The notes beneath the pieces are model-generated. The model ran no database searches and was not told the DNA's origin. It saw nothing but the letters and a program-made list of their open reading frames with translations. A DNA stretch of 64,000 nt from Escherichia coli (lineage in GTDB: Bacteria > Pseudomonadota > Gammaproteobacteria > Enterobacterales > Enterobacteriaceae), in the NCBI RefSeq assembly GCF_051903065.1, contig NZ_CP178438.1; one strand, written 5' to 3'. The translations under genes were made by a program, and so were the position numbers. Positions 1,653 through 63,975 of this stretch are shown one piece after another. Position 1 is the first letter of the stretch; the number at the start of each line of letters is the position of its first letter.

Positions 1653-2411
1653 TCACGCCACCCCAATCTCCATCCCATCAAACCCCGCCTCAAACCCTGA
1701 CGGCAGCGCGTTCTCCATCAGCCACGCATCAAACTGGTGGCTGATATGGGTCAGAATCACCCGTGGCGAGCGGATAACCTGATTCAGCGCAAGCACGGTA
1801 TTTAAATCACAGTGATTACGCGGTGCATCCTCGCGCGGCGGGTGGCTGCAATCAATCACCATTACCTGTAGCTGATTATTGTGTAAAAATTTCAGCGTTT
1901 TTTCCGGCAGGCCTGCGGTGTCAGACAGCCACGCCACCCGGCTGTGTGCCGTTTCCAGCAGATAACCGAAGGTCAGTTTTGAGTGGTTTAGCGGCAGCGG
2001 TGTCACCTGCAACCCCTGCAAATCGAACACCACAAACGGTTCCACCGTGTGGCTGAAATCAAGCAGGCCCGGATGTTTAAACAGATCGTCGCAGCCCTGT
2101 TCATCCGGCGGGCCGTAGACCGGGATCGAACCGCCCACGCCCCAGCGCAGCGGAAACAGTCCCTGAACGTGATCCATATGATAATGCGTCAGCAAAAACT
2201 GCTGGAACGATCCTGGCGACCAGCGATCGGTGAGATCGTGCAGCCCGGCGTCGATCAGGGTGACAGCCTCGTTAAACTTCACTACGCCGCTGCACGGCTG
2301 GCGGCGATACTGCGGCGAGCGTCGCGCTCGTGCGCAGGCCGCGCACTCGCAGCCCCATGCCGGAACGCCCTGTGCGCCGCCGGTGCCCGTGAGCGTGAGG
2401 GTCAGGCTCAT
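1653..2411 (-). CDS. phnP: Phosphonate metabolism phosphodiesterase PhnP (metallo-beta-lactamase fold)
   Basis: 252 aa; HYHMDH metal-binding motif; last gene of the phn operon by order. Confidence 0.93.
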
Positions 2412-2412
2412 G

Positions 2413-2847
2413 TTACAGCGCCTTGGTGAAGCGGAAATGGCTCTGCTCGTAGCCTTCGCGCAGATAGAAACGGTGCGCGTCGTGGCGCTTCACGTTGGTG
2501 GAAAGCTCGGTCATTTCGGCCCCGGCCTGGCGGGCTTCTTCTTCTGCCCACGCCAGTAACTTACTGCCGACGTTCAGACCGCGCGCCTGCGGCATCACCA
2601 CCAGCTCCTGAATTTCGCCGATCCAGTTGACATGATGCAGATGAAACTGCAAATGCAGGCCGATCATGCCAACAACTTCGCCATCCAGCAGCGCCAGATG
2701 GTAGCGCATGTTTGGGTCACGCAGGTTGGCGTTAAAGCCCACGCGAAACGCGTGATGGTCAAACTCCGCCTGTTTTAGCTCACAAATCAGCGCGTAAACC
2801 GCGTCGGTGTCGTACTGCGTGGCCGGGCGAAGCTCACAAGCAGGCAT
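2413..2847 (-). CDS. phnO: Aminoalkylphosphonate N-acetyltransferase PhnO
   Basis: 144 aa GNAT-type protein; operon position. Confidence 0.92.
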
Positions 2848-3391
2848 GGTGTTTCTCCTTCTGATGAATCAGCGTCAGCAGCGTGTCGACCGACTGGCGC
2901 AGGCTGCCGTCATTATTGAGCGTATGGCAATCCTGTGGAGTATAGCGGGCAGCGCGCGCCAGCCGGGCGTTAATTTCACTGGCGTTTTCACGACCACGGT
3001 TTTCCAGGCGCTGGCGCAGGATCTCCGGCGACACCTGTAAGCAGATGGGCAGCAGCGCCGATGCATAGCGTGCCCGCGCCTGCGGCAGATGGGCGCGTGA
3101 GCCGTTGACCAGCACGTCGAATCCGGCGTGCAGCCAGAGATCAATTTCCAGCCCGACGCCGTAATAGTAGCCGTTAGCATGCCAGCTTAACGCGAAGAGT
3201 TGCTGACCTGCACGGGCAAAAAACTCCTGCTCGCTCAGGGCGATATGGTTTTCACTTCCGGCGCTGGCATCGCGCGTGATGTAGCGATGCGCCACCAGTA
3301 ACTGAGTTTGTTCCCGCAGGCGGAGTTCCGCCAGCAGGCTATCTTTCCCGGAGCCGGACGGCCCCATTAACCAAATCAGTTTTCCCGTCAT
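2834..3391 (-). CDS. phnN: Ribose 1,5-bisphosphate phosphokinase PhnN
   Basis: 185 aa; P-loop GPSGSGKDS; overlaps phnO by 14 nt. Confidence 0.92.
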
Positions 3392-4527
3392 CAGAACACC
3401 CTTTTACCCTGACGCCAGACGTGGTCGATATGAATATGATTGCCCTTGCGATGCGCCAGCACCAGGTCGGCGCGTTTGCCCTCGCCAATCACCCCGCGAT
3501 CCTGGAGATTAAGCGCCTGCGCTGGATTTTTAGTCACCAGCTTCACCGCCTGCGGCAGCGTAAAGCGGTTGCTCTGGTCATCGGCGACGCGGAACGCCGC
3601 ATCCAGCAGGCTGGCGGGGTAGTAGTCGGAAGAGAGGATATCCAGCAGGCCAAGCTGCGCCAGTTCACTGGCCGCCACGTTGCCGGAGTGCGAACCGCCG
3701 CGCACAATATTCGGCGCGCCCATCAGCACGTTCATGCCATGCTTGCGCGAGGCTTCCGCCGCTTCGAACGTAGTGGGAAATTCGGCGATCACGCTGCCAA
3801 GCTGGTGGGATTCGGCAACATGGGCGTGGGTGGCGTCATCGTGGCTGGCGAGCGCAATGTGTCGCGCGCGGCACATTGCGGCGATGGATTCGCGATTTGG
3901 CTGCGACCAGCGTGCAGCAAGCGCCAGCTGTTCCTCTTCATACTGCTGCATCTGCGCGTCGGTGAGCGAGTATTTGCCCTGATAATATTCGCGATACTTC
4001 TCGCGGTTGGCGAACTGGCGCTGGCCCGGCGAGTGGTCCATCAGCGATACCAGCGTCACCGGCTCGCGCTGCACCAGTTTTTCAAACAGCGGCAGCGTGG
4101 TGTGGTGCGGCAGTTCGCAGCGCAGGTGCAGACGGTGCTCGGCGCGGTTGACGCCGCGTTTCTGCGTCTCTTCGATGGCGTTGATCATCTTCTCCAGATT
4201 CTCCAGCCGATCGCCGCCGTCGCGCACGTCGCCAATCGCCACGGCATCCAGTACGGTGGTGATGCCGCTCGCCACCATCAGCGCATCGTGGCTGCTCATC
4301 GCCGAGTGGGCGGGCCAGTCAACTTTCGGGCGCGGGGTGAAGAATTTATCCAGATTATCGGTATGCAGCTCAATCAGGCCCGGCAGCAGCCAGCCGCCTT
4401 CGCCGTCCATCGCCTCCGGCAGGCGGCTCTGGCTTTCGGCAAAGGCGCGGATTTCGCCGTCCTGCACCTCCAGTGAACCGCTTACCACCTCGTTTTCCAG
4501 CACCAATTTGACGTTATTGATAATCAT
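3391..4527 (-). CDS. phnM: C-P lyase pathway triphosphoribosyl-phosphonate diphosphohydrolase PhnM (amidohydrolase family)
   Basis: 378 aa; operon position. Confidence 0.92.
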
Positions 4528-5204
4528 GAAGAGGCTCCCATTGGGTGCAGGCGGTCGGCAACGTCATTACGTACGGCTTCGTCATGGAAGATGCCGACAA
4601 TGGCTGCGCCGCGGGCTTTGGCTTCGCGGATCAGTTCCACCACCGCGGCGCTGTTTTTGGCGTCCAGCGAGGCGGTAGGTTCGTCGAGCAGCAGAATGGG
4701 GTAGTCGACGATAAAGCCGCGGGCGATGTTGACGCGCTGCTGTTCGCCGCCGGAGAAGGTCGATGGTGCCAGGTGCCACAGGCGTTCCGGCACGTTCAGG
4801 CGGGTGAGCAGACGCGCGGCTTTAGCAGCGCAGGCTTCACGCGGTACGCCGGTATCGAGCAGCGGCTGCATTACTACTTCCAGCGCCGAAATGCGCGGGA
4901 TAACTCGCAGAAACTGGCTCACCCAGCCAACGGTGGTTTTGCGGATTTCCACCACTTTGCGCGCTGGCGCGGTGACCAGATCGACCCATTCGTCACCGTG
5001 TTTGATCTGGATTTGCCCTTCGTCGGGCAGATAGTTGGCGTACAGCGAGCGCAGCAGGGTTGATTTGCCGCTGCCGGAGTGGCCGTGGAGCACCACGCAT
5101 TCGCCCGCGTTGACGGTGAGTGAGGCGCGTTGTAAGACGGGCAGGCGCACGCCGTTTTGCTGATGCAGGATGAAGGTTTTACTGACGTTTTGTACGTTAA
5201 TCAT
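4524..5204 (-). CDS. phnL: C-P lyase ATP-binding subunit PhnL
   Basis: 226 aa from [11 protein letters not shown]; Walker [10 protein letters not shown]. The track ORF (432 aa) is an upstream in-frame extension through a REP element and was trimmed. Confidence 0.9.
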
Positions 5205-5314: not shown

Positions 5315-6073
5315 TCAATTCTGCAAAACCGATGACACCAGCAGCTGTGTATACGGATGATGCGGGTCGTCGAGCACGCGGTCGGTTAACCCACTCTCCA
5401 CCACTTGCCCCTGCTTCATCACCAGCAAACGGTCCGCCAGCAGGCGGGCGACGCCTAAATCGTGGGTGACAATCACCACCGCGAGGTTCAGCTCCACCAC
5501 CAGGCCGCGCAGCAGGTCGAGCAGGCGCGCCTGCACCGACACATCCAGCCCGCCGGTTGGCTCGTCCATAAATACCAGCTTCGGATGCGTCACCAGGTTG
5601 CGGGCAATCTGCAAACGCTGCTGCATGCCGCCGGAAAAGGTGGTCGGCAGGTCGTCGATCCGGTTGGCGGGAATTTCCACCTCTTCCAGCCACTTCTGCG
5701 CGGTGGCGCGAATATCGCCGTAATGACGTGCCCCGGTCGCCATCAGCCGCTCGCCGATATTGCCGCCTGCCGACACCTGGCGGCGCAGGCCGTCGAGCGG
5801 ATGCTGATGCACCACGCCCCATTCGGTGCGCAGCAGGCGACGGCGGTCGGCCTCGCTCATGCCATAGAGGGAACGGTTTTCATAGTGAATCTCCCCCTGC
5901 TGCGGCGTCAGACGCGCGGAAATTGATTTCAGCAGCGTGGTCTTCCCGGAGCCGGATTCCCCGACAATGCCCAGCACTTCCCCCGGCCATAAATCAAAAG
6001 AGACATCGCTAAAGCCTTTGCCCGGCGCGTAAAGGTGGGTCAGGTTATTGACCGAAAGTAACGGTTGATTCAT
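5315..6073 (-). CDS. phnK: C-P lyase ATP-binding subunit PhnK
   Basis: 252 aa from [11 protein letters not shown]; ABC ATPase motifs ([17 protein letters not shown]); start overlaps phnJ stop. Confidence 0.92.
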
Positions 6074-6915
6074 TGGCTTTTTGCCTCGCTCTGTTGGCGG
6101 CAATAATCGGTATCGGAGCAGACAAACATGCGGTTTCCGGCGTCATCCAGCACCACTTCATCAAGATAGCTGTGGGTCGATCCGCAGATGGCGCATGGCT
6201 CATCCCACTGCTGAACGGTGAACGGGTGATCGTCGAAATCGAGGCTTTCCACGCGGGTAAACGGCGGCACCGCATAGATGCGCTTCTCACGCCCGGCGCC
6301 GAACAGTTGCAGGGCGGGCATCATGTCCATTTTCGGGTTATCGAATTTCGGGATCGGCGACGGGTCCATTACGTAGCGCCCGTTCACCTTCACCGGATAG
6401 GCGTAGGTGGTGGCGATATGACCGAAGCGGGCGATATCTTCATACAGCTTCACCTGCATCACGCCGTACTCCTCCAGCGCGTGCATGGTGCGGGTTTCCG
6501 TTTCGCGCGGCTCGATAAAGCGCAGCGGTTCGGGGATCGGCACCTGGAAAATAATGATCTGATCTTCGGTCAGCGGCGTTTCGGGGATGCGGTGACGCGT
6601 CTGGATGACCGTTGCATCGTCCGTGCGCTCGGTGGTGTTTACCCCGGTCACGCGCTTAAAGAAGTTGCGAATCGACACGGCGTTGGTGGTGTCATCCGCG
6701 CCCTGGTCAATCACCTTCAGCACGTCGCTTACGCCAATCACGCTGGCGGTAAGCTGAATGCCGCCGGTTCCCCAGCCGTACGGCATTGGCATCTCGCGCC
6801 CGCCAAACGGCACCTGATAACCGGGGATTGCCACCGCTTTTAAGATGGCGCGGCGGATCATGCGTTTGGTCTGCTCGTCGAGGTAGGCAAAGTTGTAGCC
6901 GCTCAGATTAGCCAT
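6070..6915 (-). CDS. phnJ: Alpha-D-ribose 1-methylphosphonate 5-phosphate C-P lyase PhnJ
   Basis: 281 aa from MANLSGYNFAYLDEQTKR; C-terminal Cys cluster (CAICGSTHSYLDE). Confidence 0.93.
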   Translation of the reverse strand: MANLSGYNFAYLDEQTKRMIRRAILKAVAIPGYQVPFGGREMPMPYGWGTGGIQLTASVIGVSDVLKVIDQGADDTTNAVSIRNFFKRVTGVNTTERTDDATVIQTRHRIPETPLTEDQIIIFQVPIPEPLRFIEPRETETRTMHALEEYGVMQVKLYEDIARFGHIATTYAYPVKVNGRYVMDPSPIPKFDNPKMDMMPALQLFGAGREKRIYAVPPFTRVESLDFDDHPFTVQQWDEPCAICGSTHSYLDEVVLDDAGNRMFVCSDTDYCRQQSEAKSQ

Positions 6916-7972
6916 GGTTCTGCTCCTGTTGCAGACGTTTGAGTAGCTCCAGTTCGGCCTGGAAATCGACGTAGTGCGGGAGTTTGAGGTGCGAGACAAA
7001 GCCTGCGGCTTCGACGTTGTCGGCATGTGCCAGCACGAACTCTTCATCCTGCGCCGGGCCTGTCGCGTGCTCGCCGTACTCCGGGGCTTGCAGAGCGCGG
7101 TCGACCAGCGCCATCGCCATCGCTTTGCGCTCGCTCATGCCGAACACCAGCCCGTAGCCGCGCGTGAAGTGCGGAGATTCATCCGGTGGGTCGATAAAAC
7201 CGTTGACCATTTCACACTCAGTCATCAGCAGTTCGCCGACGTTCACCGCAAATCCCAGCTCTTCCGGCACAATCGACACGTCGATGTAACCACTGCGGAT
7301 TTCACCCGCGAACGGGTGATTGCGCCCGTAACCGCGTTGGGTGGAGTAGGCCAGCGCCAGCAAATAGCCTTCGTCGCCGCGCATCAACTGCTGCAAACGG
7401 GAAGAACGTGAGCAGGGGTAAACCGGCGGCGTGCGGGTGATGTCATCCGGGTGTGCGCCGCTATCCTCTTCAAACTTCGCCAGCCCCTGACGCGCCAGCA
7501 GGCTGAAAACGTGCGGCGACGGCTGTTGTTCGCTGTCGGCGGTGGTCAGCGTCGGCGCTTCGCCGTTTGCCAGCAGGGTGAAATCGAGCAGGCGATGGGT
7601 GTAGTCGTAGGTTGGGCCAAGCAACTGGCCGCCGGGAATATCTTTATAAACCGCTGAAATACGCCGTTCGAGACGCATCTCCGTGGTGTCGAGCGGCTCG
7701 CTTACCGCGAGCTTCGCCAGCGTGGTGCGGTAGGCGCGCAGCAGGAAAATTGCTTCGACGTTATCGCCGCTGGCCTGTTTCAGCGCCAGCGCAGCCAGTT
7801 CGCGGTCGGCAATGCCGCCTTCGGTCATCACGCGATCCACCGCAAGATTAAGCTGCTGTTCAATCTGGGCGACGCTCAGTTCAGGCAAATCAGTGTCGCC
7901 CCGGCGTCGGCTCTCTTGCAGGGCGTGGGCGGCGTCGATCGCCTTCTCGCCCCCTTTCACGGCAACGTACAT
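6908..7972 (-). CDS. phnI: C-P lyase core complex subunit PhnI
   Basis: 354 aa from [13 protein letters not shown]; overlaps phnJ start and phnH stop. Confidence 0.92.
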   Translation of the reverse strand: MYVAVKGGEKAIDAAHALQESRRRGDTDLPELSVAQIEQQLNLAVDRVMTEGGIADRELAALALKQASGDNVEAIFLLRAYRTTLAKLAVSEPLDTTEMRLERRISAVYKDIPGGQLLGPTYDYTHRLLDFTLLANGEAPTLTTADSEQQPSPHVFSLLARQGLAKFEEDSGAHPDDITRTPPVYPCSRSSRLQQLMRGDEGYLLALAYSTQRGYGRNHPFAGEIRSGYIDVSIVPEELGFAVNVGELLMTECEMVNGFIDPPDESPHFTRGYGLVFGMSERKAMAMALVDRALQAPEYGEHATGPAQDEEFVLAHADNVEAAGFVSHLKLPHYVDFQAELELLKRLQQEQNHG

Positions 7973-8556
7973 CAGCACACCTCCACATGAGTGGTTCGCG
8001 GAATAGCCAGCAGGCGCTCGCCGCAGGTCAGGATCAGGTCGATGCCGAGCGGGAACGGGTGCGGGCGCTCGGTGAGTTCGTGCAGAATGCACTCCGGCAG
8101 CTGCGGGGCGATCATTCGTTCTTCGGCAATGCCCGCGCCGGTGAGACGCAACATGCGCCCGCCGCTCAGGCTGGCGACCTGTAAAATCAGCGTTGCACCC
8201 GCTTCCGGCGCAACGGCGGTGCCGGTGGAAAGGGCGTTGAGCTGTTCGCTGGAAATCGCCTCATCCGTTACCGCGAAGGTCGCCTGTTCCGGCTGGCTGA
8301 CCAGCGGCGCGTTGGTATGAAAACGCAGGCTCTGGCTGACGATATCGTTACTTAATGGCGCGGAAAGCCACACCGGCGTGTCGTTATCGGCCAGCGTCAG
8401 CAGCACGCTGGTGGTGGCGATATTCAGCGGCTGCCAGCCGCGTTTGAGCTGATGCAGGGCGACAATCACGCCCGGCTCGCTCATGGCCTTTAACAGGCGA
8501 CGAAAACTGTGCTGGGCATCCTGCACAGGAAGAATAAAAGCGGTTTCCAGGGTCAT
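7972..8556 (-). CDS. phnH: C-P lyase core complex subunit PhnH
   Basis: 194 aa; operon order. Confidence 0.92.
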
Positions 8557-9005
8557 GCGTTGTCTCCGCGAACCATCGTAAAGAAGTCGACCCGGCTGGC
8601 GTTCACTTCGGCCTGGCGTGCGGCAATGCGTGCCATACGGTCAGCGTCCAGCGGGGCAATAAGGGTTTCTGATAAGTTTTGAAAATGGCGAGATTGCTGC
8701 ATCAACGCGTCAATCAGCGCGCAGCGTTCGGCGTGCTGTTTGTCGCGCCCCAGCACCCAGCTGTAGCCGAGGGTGCCGTCAGTCAGGCGTACGGCGGCGC
8801 GGGTGAGCGTGGCGTCGCCGGCAAAAAAGCGTTCGCCGGTGCCGCCCATCCGCGCCTGAATCTGCACCAGACCAGTTTCGGCAGTGCGGATCACTTCATA
8901 GTCGGCGGTGATGTTCAGCGCGTTCAGGCGGGCTGCCAGTTCAGCCGGTTGGCTGTGCGCCAGTACGGACATCCAGTGCTGGCGGGTCGCGGTATCTGCG
9001 TGCAT
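8553..9005 (-). CDS. phnG: C-P lyase core complex subunit PhnG
   Basis: 150 aa; operon order. Confidence 0.92.
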
Positions 9006-9731
9006 TCAGTGCTCCATAGTGAATTCAATCATGTCGGCGCGCGTCAGGCTGACGGAGTACTCCGCCGGGCTGCTTTCACCGTCACGGTGGTTAAGGGTGC
9101 GCACGCACAGCAGCGGCGACATATTCGGGATTTCAAGGCGCTGGCACTCTTTGGCCTGGGCGCGGCGGGCGCTGATCCGCGTCTGGCTGCGGCGCAGCGC
9201 AATCCCCGTTTGCTCGCGCAGAAAATCGTGCAGCGAGCCGCTGTCGAAGCGTTGCAGCGTCGGCCAGAGGGTGAGGTCCGCAAAGTAGTGGTCGATTAAA
9301 CAGAGCGCGATGCCGTTGACCCGGCGCAGGGTGCGCAGGTGGATAACGTTCACCCCCTCGGCGATACCCAGCGCATCCGCCACATGACCAGACGCCGGGC
9401 GCAGCACCGACAGCAGTTTTTCGCTGGTGGGATGGCTGCCCTGGTCCAGCAGGTTCTGGCTAAAACGCGCCTGGGCGTTGAGCGGGTAATCAAACGGGCG
9501 CATCAGCACCAGCACGCCGACGCCCTGACGGCGCTGTACCCAGCCTTTTTCCACCAGTTGGTCGATGGCGCGGCGCAGGGTGTGGCGATTTACCTCAAAG
9601 CGCGCCGCCAGCTGCTGCTCGGCGGGAAGATAGTCGCCGCAGCGGTAGTGTTGACGAAGCTCCTGCTCAAGTTTTGCGGCTATCTCCTGATAGCGTGTTG
9701 GGTAGCTGGTCGGATGTGTAGACAAGTGCAT
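9006..9731 (-). CDS. phnF: GntR-family transcriptional regulator PhnF
   Basis: 241 aa from MHLSTHPTSYPTRYQEIA; N-terminal winged HTH; track ORF extends 3 codons upstream. Confidence 0.9.
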   Translation of the reverse strand: MHLSTHPTSYPTRYQEIAAKLEQELRQHYRCGDYLPAEQQLAARFEVNRHTLRRAIDQLVEKGWVQRRQGVGVLVLMRPFDYPLNAQARFSQNLLDQGSHPTSEKLLSVLRPASGHVADALGIAEGVNVIHLRTLRRVNGIALCLIDHYFADLTLWPTLQRFDSGSLHDFLREQTGIALRRSQTRISARRAQAKECQRLEIPNMSPLLCVRTLNHRDGESSPAEYSVSLTRADMIEFTMEH

Positions 9732-9751: not shown

Positions 9752-10531
9752 TCAGATAAAGTGCTTACGCAACCGTTGAGAGAGGAAATCCAGCAGGCTG
9801 ACCGTGACGATAACCAGCACCATCAGGGCGCAGGTTTGCTGGAACTGGAAACCGCGAATCGCTTCCCACAGCGTGACGCCGATCCCGCCCGCGCCGACCA
9901 TGCCGACGACGGTCGCCGAGCGGACGTTGGATTCGAAGCGATAGAGGGAGTAGGAGATCAGCAGCGGCATCACCTGCGGCAGCACGCCGTAGAGGATCTC
10001 TTCGAGCTTGTTGGCACCGGTGGCGCGAATGCCCTCCACCGGGCCGGGTTCAATCGCTTCCACCGCTTCGGAAAGCAGTTTGGAGAGCACGCCGGTGGTG
10101 TGAATGAACAGCGCCAGCACGCCAGCGAACGGGCCGAGGCCGACGGCGACCACGAACAGCATGGCGAAGACCATTTCGTTAATGGCGCGGCAGGCGTCCA
10201 TCAGGCGGCGAACGGGCTGGTAAACCCACCACGGCACCAGGTTTTCGGCGCTCATCAGGCCGAAGGGGATGGAGAGAATCACCGCCAGCGCGGTGCCCCA
10301 GACGGCGATTTGCAGCGTGACGAGCATTTCGGTGAGGTAATCCTGCCACTGGCTGAAATCGGGCGGGAAGAAGTCGGCGGCGAAGGTCGCCATGTTGCCG
10401 CCGTCTTTGATCAGCGTGAGCGGGGCCATTTCCGCGCCCTGCCACGAGACGACCAACACGGCGAGTACAACGGCCCAGCTCAGAAGCGAGAACCAGCTGC
10501 GCTTGGGTGGGGCGATGGTGATGGTTTGCAT
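9752..10531 (-). CDS. phnE: Phosphonate ABC transporter permease PhnE, intact reading frame
   Basis: 259 aa from [17 protein letters not shown]; membrane-spanning ABC permease; no frameshift seen in this window. Confidence 0.88.
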
Positions 10532-10545
10532 GTTTGGCTCCGGTC

Positions 10546-10634
10546 TGTAGGCCGGATAAGGTGCTTGCACCGCATCCGGCATCAACGCCTGCACATTGTC
10601 GGATGCGACGCCGGGGCGTCTTATCCGACCTACG
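10546..10634. repeat. REP/BIME element (two inverted REP units) between phnE and phnD
   Basis: tgtaggccggataaggtgcttgcaccgcatccggca and gtcggatgcgacgccggggcgtcttatccgacctac read directly. Confidence 0.85.
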
Positions 10635-10636
10635 AT

Positions 10637-11653
10637 TTACTGCACCGCTTTACTCACCGAACTCATCGCGCTTAGCGCGTTGTTCAGGCGGTCCAGGTCA
10701 TCCAGCTGCGCCTGAATCTCGGTGGTTTTTGCCAGCTTGTCCTGCTCATTCAGTCCTTTATTGCTTTTCACGCCCTGCATCTCTTTAAACAGCGCGAGCT
10801 GGCGAATCGGCACCAGTTGCAGGTCGCTGGAGGCGCGGAACGGCGCCCAGCCCAGGCGTTCCAGCACCGCTTTCTCTTCCGGCGTTTTGCCGTAGTTCAT
10901 AAAGAAGTCGTAGATCTTGTCTTTGGTGGTTTCGGAAAGGTTTTTACGCCAGACGATCGGATCGCCTGGGATCAGCGGCGACTTCCAGATCACTTTCAGT
11001 TCTTTCAACTTCTCCGGCGCGGAGGTTTTCAGCTTGTCGAGGTTTTCGGTGTTGTTAGTGGCAACATCCACCTGCTTGTTGGCGACGGCCAGCGCGTTGG
11101 TTTCATGCCCGGCGTTGACGGTGCGCTTGAAGTCGCTGGCGGAGATATTGTTTTTGGCGAAGACGTAGTAGCCGGGGACGAGGAAGCCAGAGGTGGAGTT
11201 AGGATCGCCATTGCCGAAGGTGAGATCTTTCCGCCTGGCCAGCAGATCGTTCAGGTTGTTGATCGGGCTGTCTTTGTTGACGATCAACACGCTCCAGTAA
11301 CCCGGCGATCCATCCGCCGCGACCGTCTGGGCGAAGACCTGGCCGTTGGCGCGATCCACCGCTTCCATTGCCGACAGGTTGCCGTACCAGGCGATATCCA
11401 CTTTGTTGAAGCGCATTCCCTGGATAATGCCCGCGTAGTCCGGGGCAAAGAAGGCGTTGACCTTCACGCCCAGCTTCTTCTCCATATCCTGTAAAAACGG
11501 CGTCCATTGCGGTTTCAGGTTTTGCTGTGATTCCGTTGAAATAATGCCGAAATTCAGCGCCTTTTCCTGCTCTTCGGCGTGCGCCGGGCTAAACAGGGTG
11601 CTGAGGCTGAACATGCTGGTGAAGGCCAGCGAGGCAATTATCTTAGCGTTCAT
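10637..11653 (-). CDS. phnD: Phosphonate ABC transporter periplasmic binding protein PhnD
   Basis: 338 aa with N-terminal signal peptide; operon position. Confidence 0.93.
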   Translation of the reverse strand: MNAKIIASLAFTSMFSLSTLFSPAHAEEQEKALNFGIISTESQQNLKPQWTPFLQDMEKKLGVKVNAFFAPDYAGIIQGMRFNKVDIAWYGNLSAMEAVDRANGQVFAQTVAADGSPGYWSVLIVNKDSPINNLNDLLARRKDLTFGNGDPNSTSGFLVPGYYVFAKNNISASDFKRTVNAGHETNALAVANKQVDVATNNTENLDKLKTSAPEKLKELKVIWKSPLIPGDPIVWRKNLSETTKDKIYDFFMNYGKTPEEKAVLERLGWAPFRASSDLQLVPIRQLALFKEMQGVKSNKGLNEQDKLAKTTEIQAQLDDLDRLNNALSAMSSVSKAVQ

Positions 11654-11677: not shown

Positions 11678-12466
11678 TCAGGCAGCTTTCGCGTTCTCTT
11701 CGACGCGGTTAATGCTGCGGTAGAGATGGTCAAAACGTTCGTTATCAAACTGTTGGCTACTACCGTCGTAGAAGACGTGTCCCTGACGCAGGGCGACGAT
11801 GCGTTCGCAGTAGCGCAGGGCGTAATCCACCTGATGCAGCGTGACGACCACGGTGATGCCGTCGTTCTGATTGATGTCGCGCAGGGTGTCCATCACGATG
11901 CGGGCGGATTCCGGGTCCAGCGAGGCGATCGGTTCGTCGGCCAGAATCACCTTCGCCTGCTGCATCAGCGCGCGGGCAATCGCCACACGCTGCTGCTGGC
12001 CGCCGGAGAGGGTGGAAACGCGCTGATGGGCAAAATGCACCATGCCAACGCGGGTCAGCGCCTGTAACGCGCGCTGTTTCTGCTCGCCGGTGAACCAGCT
12101 AAAACAGGTGCGCCAGAACGGCGTGCTGCCGAGCGCGCCAATCAGCACGTTCTCCAGTACGCTCAGGCGATTCACCAGGTTGAATTGTTGGAAGATGTAG
12201 CCGGTGTTGGCGCGGCTTTTGCGGATATCGCGGGCCAGACGGCCATTTTGCTGGACGGTACGGCCCAGCAGTTCGACGCGGCATTCTGGCTTTTTATCGC
12301 CGACAATCAGGCCGCTTAAGTGACGTAAAAGGGTGGATTTGCCGGAACCCGACGGCCCAAGCAGAGCCACCATTTCACCGTGATGAATGTTCAGATCAAC
12401 CGCATGCAGCGCCTGATGCTGATTGAAGGTTTTGCTCAGTTGTTCGACGCGGATAATCGTTTGCAT
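11678..12466 (-). CDS. phnC: Phosphonate ABC transporter ATP-binding protein PhnC
   Basis: 262 aa; Walker [10 protein letters not shown], signature LSGGQQQR; first gene of the operon. Confidence 0.93.
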
Positions 12467-12510
12467 GATGTAGCCTCCCTAAAAAAGTGGCTCCATCGTG
12501 GCGGATTATT

Positions 12511-12543
12511 GTGACGATTTGGTTAATTAAAAGTGACTAACAG
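12511..12543 (-). promoter_or_regulatory. Putative PhoB-binding Pho box of the phn promoter
   Basis: Minus-strand CTGTTAGTCACTTTTAATTAACCAAATCGTCAC about 45-75 bp upstream of the phnC ATG; CTGT-type 7-bp repeats typical of Pho boxes. Exact extent not verified. Confidence 0.55.
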
Positions 12544-13104: not shown

Positions 13105-13665
<561 letters not shown>

Positions 13666-19284: not shown

Positions 19285-19337
19285 GCTGAAACGGATGGCC
19301 TGATGTGACGCTGTCTTATCAGACCAACAATTGAACT

Positions 19338-19354
19338 CTTAAGGTTCACTTAAT
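19338..19354 (+). promoter_or_regulatory. PmrA/BasR box upstream of pmrR
   Basis: CTTAAG-gttca-CTTAAT, an exact match to the YTTAAK-N5-YTTAAK direct-repeat consensus, about 45 bp upstream of the pmrR ATG. Confidence 0.7.
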
Positions 19355-19398
19355 CTCTGACGCGCATACTCTCCTCCAGGTTAACGGAGGAGAGTGCA

Positions 19399-19488
19399 AT
19401 GAAAAACCGTGTTTATGAAAGTTTAACTACCGTGTTCAGCGTGCTGGTGGTCAGCAGCTTTCTTTATATCTGGTTTGCCACGTACTGA
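19399..19488 (+). CDS. pmrR: Small membrane protein PmrR (29 aa)
   Basis: ATG preceded by GGAGG; MKNRVYESLTTVFSVLVVSSFLYIWFATY; below the ORF-track size cutoff; 3-prime end overlaps basS convergently. Confidence 0.8.
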   Translation: MKNRVYESLTTVFSVLVVSSFLYIWFATY

Positions 19489-20555
19489 TCTTTCTTCAGC
19501 CGTATCCAGGCGCGCGTGCCAGAAGTCTCTTGCCGGTTTTGCAGGAAAAACTGCCCGTGATGCAACTGTGTAATGCGGCTGACAATACTTAACCCCAGAC
19601 CAATCCCGCCATAACGGCTGTCCATTCGTACAAACGCTTTACTCAACTCCCCGCATTTACTCTCATCAATACCCGGTCCTTCATCTTCAACGGCCATGAC
19701 CGCTCCGTCATCTTCTTGCAGCTTAATCATAATGTTGCTGCCTTGCGGGCTGTAACGATGGGCGTTTTCTACCAGATTTCGCAATAACATCCGCAGCAGG
19801 GTTGCATCACCCTGAACGGTGATGTCGGCGGTGCTCTCTGGCAATAGCAGGGTTTGCTGTCGCTGGTCGAGCATGGTACTGAGTTCGTCATACGAGGGGA
19901 GAATGACATCTTCCAGCAGTTTTACATGTTGATAATTACCGGAAGAAAATGACTGTCCGGCACGCGCCAGTTGCAGCAGCTGGGAGACGCTCTCCATCAT
20001 CTGATCAAGCCGTGCCACTAACGGTGCTACATCAATGTGATGCGTTTTCGCCAGCAGTTCCAGATGCAAACGTACCCCCGCCAGTGGCGTTCGCAGTTCG
20101 TGCGCGACGTCAGCGGTAAACAACCTTTCGTTATCCAGCGTGCTGGTCAGGCGACTGACCAGATCGTTTAACGCCGAAACCACCGCTTCGATTTCGAGGG
20201 TGGCGCTGTGAATGGCAATGGGCGTTAAGTTGTCGGCGGTGCGCGCTTCCAGCTCTTTTTGCAGCTCCGCCAGCGGGCGGGTGATGCGGCGTACCGCCTG
20301 ATAGCAGATAAATAGCGTCAGGCTGACCATAAAGACGCCGGGGACAATCAGGCTGGCGACCGCCTCGCGGATCTCACGCATGATGTGGCGATCGTTGTTG
20401 CGATTGTCGCGTAGCGCCTGCTCAAACAGCTGAATCTGCTCGGTACTTTCATGCCATAGCCAGAAGACGCTGATCAGCTCAAACACCAACAAAATGGCCC
20501 CGATGGTCAATATCAGCCGTTGGCGCAGCGATATTGGTCGGCGCAGAAAACGCAT
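19464..20555 (-). CDS. basS: Sensor histidine kinase BasS (PmrB)
   Basis: 363 aa from the ATG at MRFLRRPISL; HAMP, H-box (DVAHELRTPL) and ATPase motifs; track ORF begins 3 codons earlier at a TTG. Confidence 0.9.
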   Translation of the reverse strand: MRFLRRPISLRQRLILTIGAILLVFELISVFWLWHESTEQIQLFEQALRDNRNNDRHIMREIREAVASLIVPGVFMVSLTLFICYQAVRRITRPLAELQKELEARTADNLTPIAIHSATLEIEAVVSALNDLVSRLTSTLDNERLFTADVAHELRTPLAGVRLHLELLAKTHHIDVAPLVARLDQMMESVSQLLQLARAGQSFSSGNYQHVKLLEDVILPSYDELSTMLDQRQQTLLLPESTADITVQGDATLLRMLLRNLVENAHRYSPQGSNIMIKLQEDDGAVMAVEDEGPGIDESKCGELSKAFVRMDSRYGGIGLGLSIVSRITQLHHGQFFLQNRQETSGTRAWIRLKKDQYVANQI

Positions 20556-49835: not shown

Positions 49836-49911
49836 TGGTGCCCGGACTCGGAATCGAACCAAGGACACGGGGATTTTCAATCCCCTGCTCTACCGACTGA
49901 GCTATCCGGGC
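49836..49911 (-). tRNA. pheU: tRNA-Phe (anticodon GAA)
   Basis: Minus strand reads GCCCGGATAGCTCAGTCGGTAGAGCAGGGGATTGAAAATCCCCGTGTCCTTGGTTCGATTCCGAGTCCGGGCACCA, 76 nt with encoded CCA. Confidence 0.97.
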
Positions 49912-63924: not shown

Positions 63925-63975
63925 CTTTGCAGGACGACCTGCAAACGCGTCTTTTCACCGGGGACGGCCCCAATT
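63925..63975 (+). promoter_or_regulatory. Guanidine-II (mini-ykkC) riboswitch upstream of gdx
   Basis: Two short GC hairpins with ACGR tetraloops, GCAGG-ACGA-CCTGC (63929-63942) and GGGG-ACGG-CCCC (63960-63971), 17-nt linker, then GGAG and an ATG at 63990. Confidence 0.65.

Follow-up and report, generated by a model that had tools for sequence, protein, structure and literature searches.

The gene at positions 9752–10531 of the analysed stretch of Escherichia coli DNA (64,000 nucleotides, hereafter the window) is very probably a wild-type, in-frame "on" allele of phnE, embedded in a complete phn operon that, judged from its sequence, would be phosphonate-competent. As such the feature is already known and ordinary: the literature describes the 8-bp insertion that disrupts this gene in K-12, its removal through slippage and the Phn+ phenotype that follows.

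The phnE frame, its product and the 8-bp tract

Translation of 9752–10531 on the minus strand runs from an ATG to a TGA through 259 codons with zero internal stops, confirming the intact frame that the first-pass annotation had claimed for this gene. In the program-made list of open reading frames, the phnE frame opens earlier, with a GTG at 10594. The near-identical genome of strain ECNB21-M121 (NZ_CP083585.1), however, has its annotated phnE start at the ATG at 10531; its coding sequence maps exactly onto 9752–10531 and shows no differences from the window sequence. The product, the membrane permease subunit of the PhnCDE phosphonate ABC importer, scores 311 bits against the NCBIfam equivalog model TIGR01097 (cutoff 216.7), with residues 16–258 aligned to positions 8–251 of the 252 in the model. 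The frameshift that might have been misread in the original reading is absent, the gene being in frame and its product matching the equivalog nearly end to end. Pfam BPD_transp_1 (PF00528) covers residues 88–258 (91.7 bits) and, by sequence, the closest solved relatives of PhnE are the MetI-type permeases.

A conserved cytoplasmic loop with an EAA-type motif occupies residues about 154–184 (9980–10072, minus strand), which we take to be the coupling loop through which an ABC-importer permease touches its ATPase. Seven residues of the loop (T170, G171, A172, E177, G181, V182 and P184) do not vary across 20 homologues, and the window protein has all of them. Compared with the common E. coli PhnE, the window protein is 98% identical and carries three changes, A70L, V85I and I239V, each of which is found in orthologues of other genera. 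The gene should be annotated as one intact PhnE of 259 amino acids, and not as two pieces as in K-12.

The homologue comparison also yielded a set of variant PhnE proteins (P0002, P0003, P0001, P0049 and P0025). Among E. coli PhnE variants, residues 145–169 (25 amino acids) are either duplicated in frame, giving a protein of 284 amino acids, or deleted, giving one of 234 amino acids; the deletion form is present on 126 contigs. The segment corresponds to window positions 10025–10099, overlaps the conserved coupling loop in part and has CCACCGG at its boundaries in the DNA. P0002 carries the window's own L70/I85/V239 haplotype, and P0025 (261 amino acids) looks like a three-unit frameshift that is compensated ~26 codons downstream.

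The slippage tract, GCTGGCGTGCTGGCG, lies at 10112–10126 on the minus strand and encodes codons 136–140 of phnE (FAGVL). It consists of two tandem GCTGGCGT units, the second without its last T, and is thus a perfect tandem repeat inside a coding sequence, with a unit length that is not a multiple of three. An exact match to the tract occurs once within the 64-kb window. With only 15 nt, the tract does not reach statistical prominence by itself, and Tandem Repeats Finder, run with a minimum score of 30, did not report it; what gives it meaning is the alignment to K-12.

For this comparison, the K-12 gene was taken from genome NZ_CP064678.1, in which the RefSeq annotation lists phnE as a frameshifted pseudogene. 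Pairwise alignment of the window and K-12 genes, proposed beforehand as a search for the 8-bp repeat, revealed 19 substitutions and one indel only, namely the extra unit of K-12: the K-12 sequence GCTGGCGT GCTGGCGT GCTGGCG corresponds to GCTGGCGT GCTGGCG in the window. With three GCTGGCGT units against two in the window, K-12 phnE is 8 nt longer (788 vs 780 nt), and its translation departs from PhnE beyond residue 139 and ends 49 codons on, at 188 residues in total. The window frame is intact because this third 8-bp unit is absent. The three tandem units and the +8 frameshift that define the K-12-type cryptic allele are not found in the window phnE, which has two copies in an assembly showing just the majority state of a tract known to slip. 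The conserved loop at residues ~154–184 is located downstream of the tract and is therefore lost in the frameshifted product of K-12.

The phn operon and its origin

The phnCDEFGHIJKLMNOP operon is complete, with its 14 genes in K-12 order, each with an ATG start, zero internal stops or frameshifts and the same length as in K-12. Twelve of the 14 products exceed the curated cutoffs of NCBIfam equivalog models; the other two, PhnI and PhnJ, have no NCBIfam model and match Pfam families at 515 and 500 bits, respectively. The statement that the phnCDE transporter and the 14-gene operon are complete was accordingly upheld, with intact frames and a family match for every gene.

Directly upstream of phnE on the same strand lie phnD and phnC, the products of which are both above their equivalog cutoffs. 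phnD (10637–11653, minus strand) encodes the periplasmic phosphonate-binding protein of 338 amino acids (TIGR03431, 376 bits, cutoff 261), of which 336 are identical to K-12. phnC (11678–12466, minus strand) encodes the ATPase subunit of 262 amino acids (NF007438, 595 bits over the full length, cutoff 365; 250/262 identical to K-12), and its product keeps the Walker A sequence GPSGSGKS and the LSGG signature. The gene for the GntR-type regulator PhnF (9006–9731, minus strand; 241 amino acids) is intact and its product scores 514 bits against NF007486 (cutoff 363). The C-P lyase core, phnG–phnK, spans 5315–9005 on the minus strand and comprises phnG (8553–9005), phnH (7972–8556), phnI (6908–7972), phnJ (6070–6915) and phnK (5315–6073), all intact, with scores above the cutoffs of TIGR03293, TIGR03292 and TIGR02323 and with the Pfam PhnI and PhnJ matches given above. 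PhnJ retains G32, C241, C244, C266 and C272, presumably the glycyl-radical and the Fe-S/radical-SAM residues of the enzyme. The phnL–phnP block (1653–5204, minus strand) consists of phnL (4524–5204), phnM (3391–4527), phnN (2834–3391), phnO (2413–2847) and phnP (1653–2411), all of which are intact, of K-12 length and above NCBIfam equivalog cutoffs.

The yjdN–phnC spacer upstream of phnC, which is identical to K-12 at 136 of 138 positions, holds the motif ATTAACCAAATCGTCACA (12510–12527, minus strand), unique in the window and a predicted PhoB site. The motif exactly matches that of the phnC ChIP-seq peak of MG1655, a strain in which the phn operon is strongly PhoB-dependent (PMC10294691), and this identity points to a PhoB-dependent promoter at the same place in the window. 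The phnD–phnE spacer is identical to K-12 and contains a palindromic repeat element (10550–10630, plus strand) that matches Rfam naRNA4 (RF02564) at 69.1 bits (gathering score 59.5). Between yjdN and yjdM (13163–13662), some five units of 100 bp follow one another in tandem, and a similar array is present in K-12; each of the units in the window matches naRNA4/CssrE (RF02564) at 86–111 bits, the copy in the phnD–phnE spacer being weaker. Further Rfam matches at the gathering score in the window are an STnc630 sRNA (19330–19495, plus strand, 182 bits), a tRNA (49839–49911, minus strand) and, at the right edge, a guanidine-II (mini-ykkC) riboswitch (63926–63972, plus strand).

Relative to K-12, the changed codons of the operon comprise 295 synonymous and 54 non-synonymous ones, a pattern expected under purifying selection. 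PhnP has ten changes. The most divergent gene of the operon is phnC (6.2% nucleotide difference), in which residues 55–64 (12275–12304) form a hypervariable patch that departs non-conservatively from the K-12 sequence TGDKSVGSHI, with 17 substitutions in 50 nt. A compensated double frameshift was considered for this patch and rejected, as the nucleotide alignment consists of substitutions only, with no indel.

An open frame could still accompany a transporter or pathway that does not function, either through missense changes (A70L in PhnE, the 55–64 patch in PhnC or the ten changes in PhnP) or through a defect outside the operon. The rarity of the haplotype, represented by six records at an identity of at least 99%, and the non-conservative nature of the PhnC patch would be compatible with such a loss. 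However, position 70 of PhnE orthologues can be L, I, V, G or S, PhnC matches its equivalog over the full length with its ATPase motifs kept, and the preponderance of synonymous changes comes with no stop or frameshift in any gene. We consider a non-functional operon improbable, and retain the reading of phnE as a working allele in a phosphonate-competent operon.

The source of the window is not K-12. The phn operon is 95.9% identical to that of K-12 (455 mismatches in 12 kb), and homology to K-12 starts only at position 1196. By contrast, positions 1–22701 are 99.991% identical to ECNB21-M121 (NZ_CP083585.1). Positions 1–1195 have no counterpart at the K-12 locus, where rpiB and alsR are found instead; in the near-identical genome NZ_CP083585.1, the left flank carries a hybrid sensor kinase/response regulator and a sugar ABC transporter. 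The window's phnE haplotype is found at an identity of at least 99% in only six complete E. coli genomes, and the next nearest alleles outside this group are of the O157:H7 type (98.7%, 10 nt differences).

The first-pass annotation had deduced a non-K-12 source from the open frame. The conclusion holds on the strength of the operon identity and the left flank, but the open frame alone was insufficient for it: a K-12 MG1655 record (NZ_CP032679.1) has the two-copy form, so an intact frame does not in itself exclude K-12, whereas the haplotype does. That record and others (PMC6469041) are sequenced revertants and lend some plausibility to the idea that the window comes from a K-12 derivative returned to Phn+ by the loss of one 8-bp unit. 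This idea is refuted by the 19 further differences in phnE, the 455 mismatches across the operon, the different genes of the left flank and the near-identity to ECNB21-M121. The window phnE is thus best read as an intact allele of a non-K-12 strain. The proposal that its frame is open by chance or as a shadow, and that the real gene is the plus-strand ORF at 9761–10675 (304 amino acids), which is longer than phnE, is almost certainly wrong. The minus strand encodes a PhnE equivalog of full length, with the gene order of the operon conserved around it, whereas the plus-strand ORF was rejected as a gene for having zero Pfam matches and merely shadows the G+C-rich coding frame, long antisense ORFs being expected in such DNA.

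Copy number of the tract across E. coli

We surveyed the tract in 5426 complete E. coli genomes using short probes for which the longest exact word shared with a wrong copy number is shorter than the 28-base megablast seed. Three or more units were detected in 1012 of the 5426 genomes (~19%; the denominator is 5396 elsewhere in the analysis) and four or more in 14, counts that do not represent population frequencies, as the complete genomes in RefSeq are sampled with bias and include many K-12 derivatives. The perfect two-unit tract with matching flanks was present in 2421 genomes, and two interrupted units were present as GCTGGCGTACTGGCG in 409 and as GCTGGTGTGCTGGCG in 309, the latter mostly O157:H7. 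Together the probes classify 4151 of about 5396 genomes, and ~1245 matched none of them, presumably owing to other SNPs inside the probe. Among 59 evenly spaced full-length phnE matches, 48 were 780 nt and 11 were 788 nt long; the resulting estimate, a phnE of 780 nt in ~81% of complete E. coli genomes, agrees with the 19% share of genomes with extra units.

Many of the 1012 genomes with three or more units are isolates from humans, animals, food and water. The six natural isolates that were sampled, CE0011b, Z1323CEC0017, MMC-J-0105, N10, VR50 and TB4019, with three or four units, all have a single phnE haplotype that lies 1 nt from K-12. The two-unit form is rare on this K-12-like haplotype, with five records at 99.9–100% identity, one of which is a K-12 MG1655 substrain; the 780-nt two-copy phnE of MG1655 record NZ_CP032679.1 is 99.9% identical to the haplotype. 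On the K-12-like haplotype, therefore, two, three and four copies are all found with 0–1 other differences. Strain 2013C-4974 (NZ_CP027587.1) has ten 8-bp units (locus 604–682) in an 844-nt phnE that is annotated as frameshifted; its haplotype lies 23 nt from K-12.

The three-copy allele thus extends beyond K-12 as a laboratory lineage. The 8-bp duplication that had been attributed to K-12 phnE is present there and does shift the frame, but its attribution to the K-12 laboratory lineage only did not survive the survey. Reversible high-frequency switching of phnE in K-12 was reportedly described by Iqbal et al. in 2004, and the off form is said to have been considered peculiar to K-12. The frequent occurrence of the three-copy off allele in natural isolates, on one haplotype, modestly corrects the textbook statement. 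No relevant survey of how the phnE repeat number varies in nature came up in a literature search, and the AllTheBacteria preprint mentions phnE just as phnE_2::FRT strain markers.

Proposed function and relation to known phnE alleles

In the phn system, PhoB turns the operon on at phosphate limitation. PhnD captures phosphonate in the periplasm, the PhnE permease moves it across the membrane with PhnC powering the transfer, and PhnG to PhnP turn it into phosphate and an alkane through ribosyl intermediates and the PhnJ radical step. Given the intact operon and the unchanged PhoB site, transcription, alkylphosphonate import and C-P lyase cleavage are to be expected under phosphate starvation, and we infer expression, phosphonate transport and growth on phosphonates for the window operon on this basis. 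PhnCDE has been reported to import phosphate too (PMC6469041). Under phosphate starvation, the source strain can probably use phosphonates and take up phosphate via PhnCDE, as most E. coli do. In K-12, the third unit shifts the frame after residue 139 and cuts off the C-terminal half of PhnE, the presumed PhnC-docking loop included; phosphonate is therefore not imported, despite the intact C-P lyase genes of K-12.

The 8-bp tract of phnE is prone to slippage, with two units in frame and three or four out of frame. As the two-copy tract of the window is still perfect, slippage during replication could in principle add a unit and turn the allele off. Beyond being a plain wild-type gene, the window phnE may represent one phase, the "on" state, of a contingency locus that spans the species, a suggestion that we advance only tentatively. 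If it were true, the loss of phosphonate uptake would be maintained in a large natural lineage (~19% of complete genomes); selection for the off state, clonal inheritance or RefSeq sampling bias may each account for the off-state counts. The interrupted tracts GCTGGCGTACTGGCG and GCTGGTGTGCTGGCG should slip less, and the synonymously broken tract of the O157:H7-type and D10-type alleles may lock phnE on.

The known alleles provide the frame for this reading. The 8-bp insertion renders PhnCDE cryptic in K-12, and deletion of GCTGGCGT at nt 407–414 restores it (PMC6469041); such revertants arise by slippage and are easily selected on phosphonate or by phosphate starvation (PMC6469041, PMC4759930). 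According to PMC6469041, which cites Makino 1991 and Iqbal 2004, phnE is functional in E. coli B and in Phn+ revertants of K-12, where it has two 8-bp units. The window gene resembles these functional alleles in length (780 nt, 259 amino acids), in its position in the operon and in its two GCTGGCGT copies at nt 406–420, but belongs to another haplotype, differing from the functional K-12-like sequence by 18–19 nt and by the three amino acid changes A70L, V85I and I239V. With the cryptic allele of K-12 it shares the gene, the tract, the flanks and an identical phnD–phnE spacer; the K-12 allele differs in having one unit more (788 nt) and in losing the frame after residue 139, whereas the window gene stays in frame. 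The O157:H7-type and D10-type alleles are likewise in frame and 780 nt long, and the O157 type is the nearest relative outside the window's small group. In these alleles, a synonymous change breaks the tract (GCTGGTGTGCTGGCG and GCTGGCGTACTGGCG, respectively), whereas the tract of the window is perfect.
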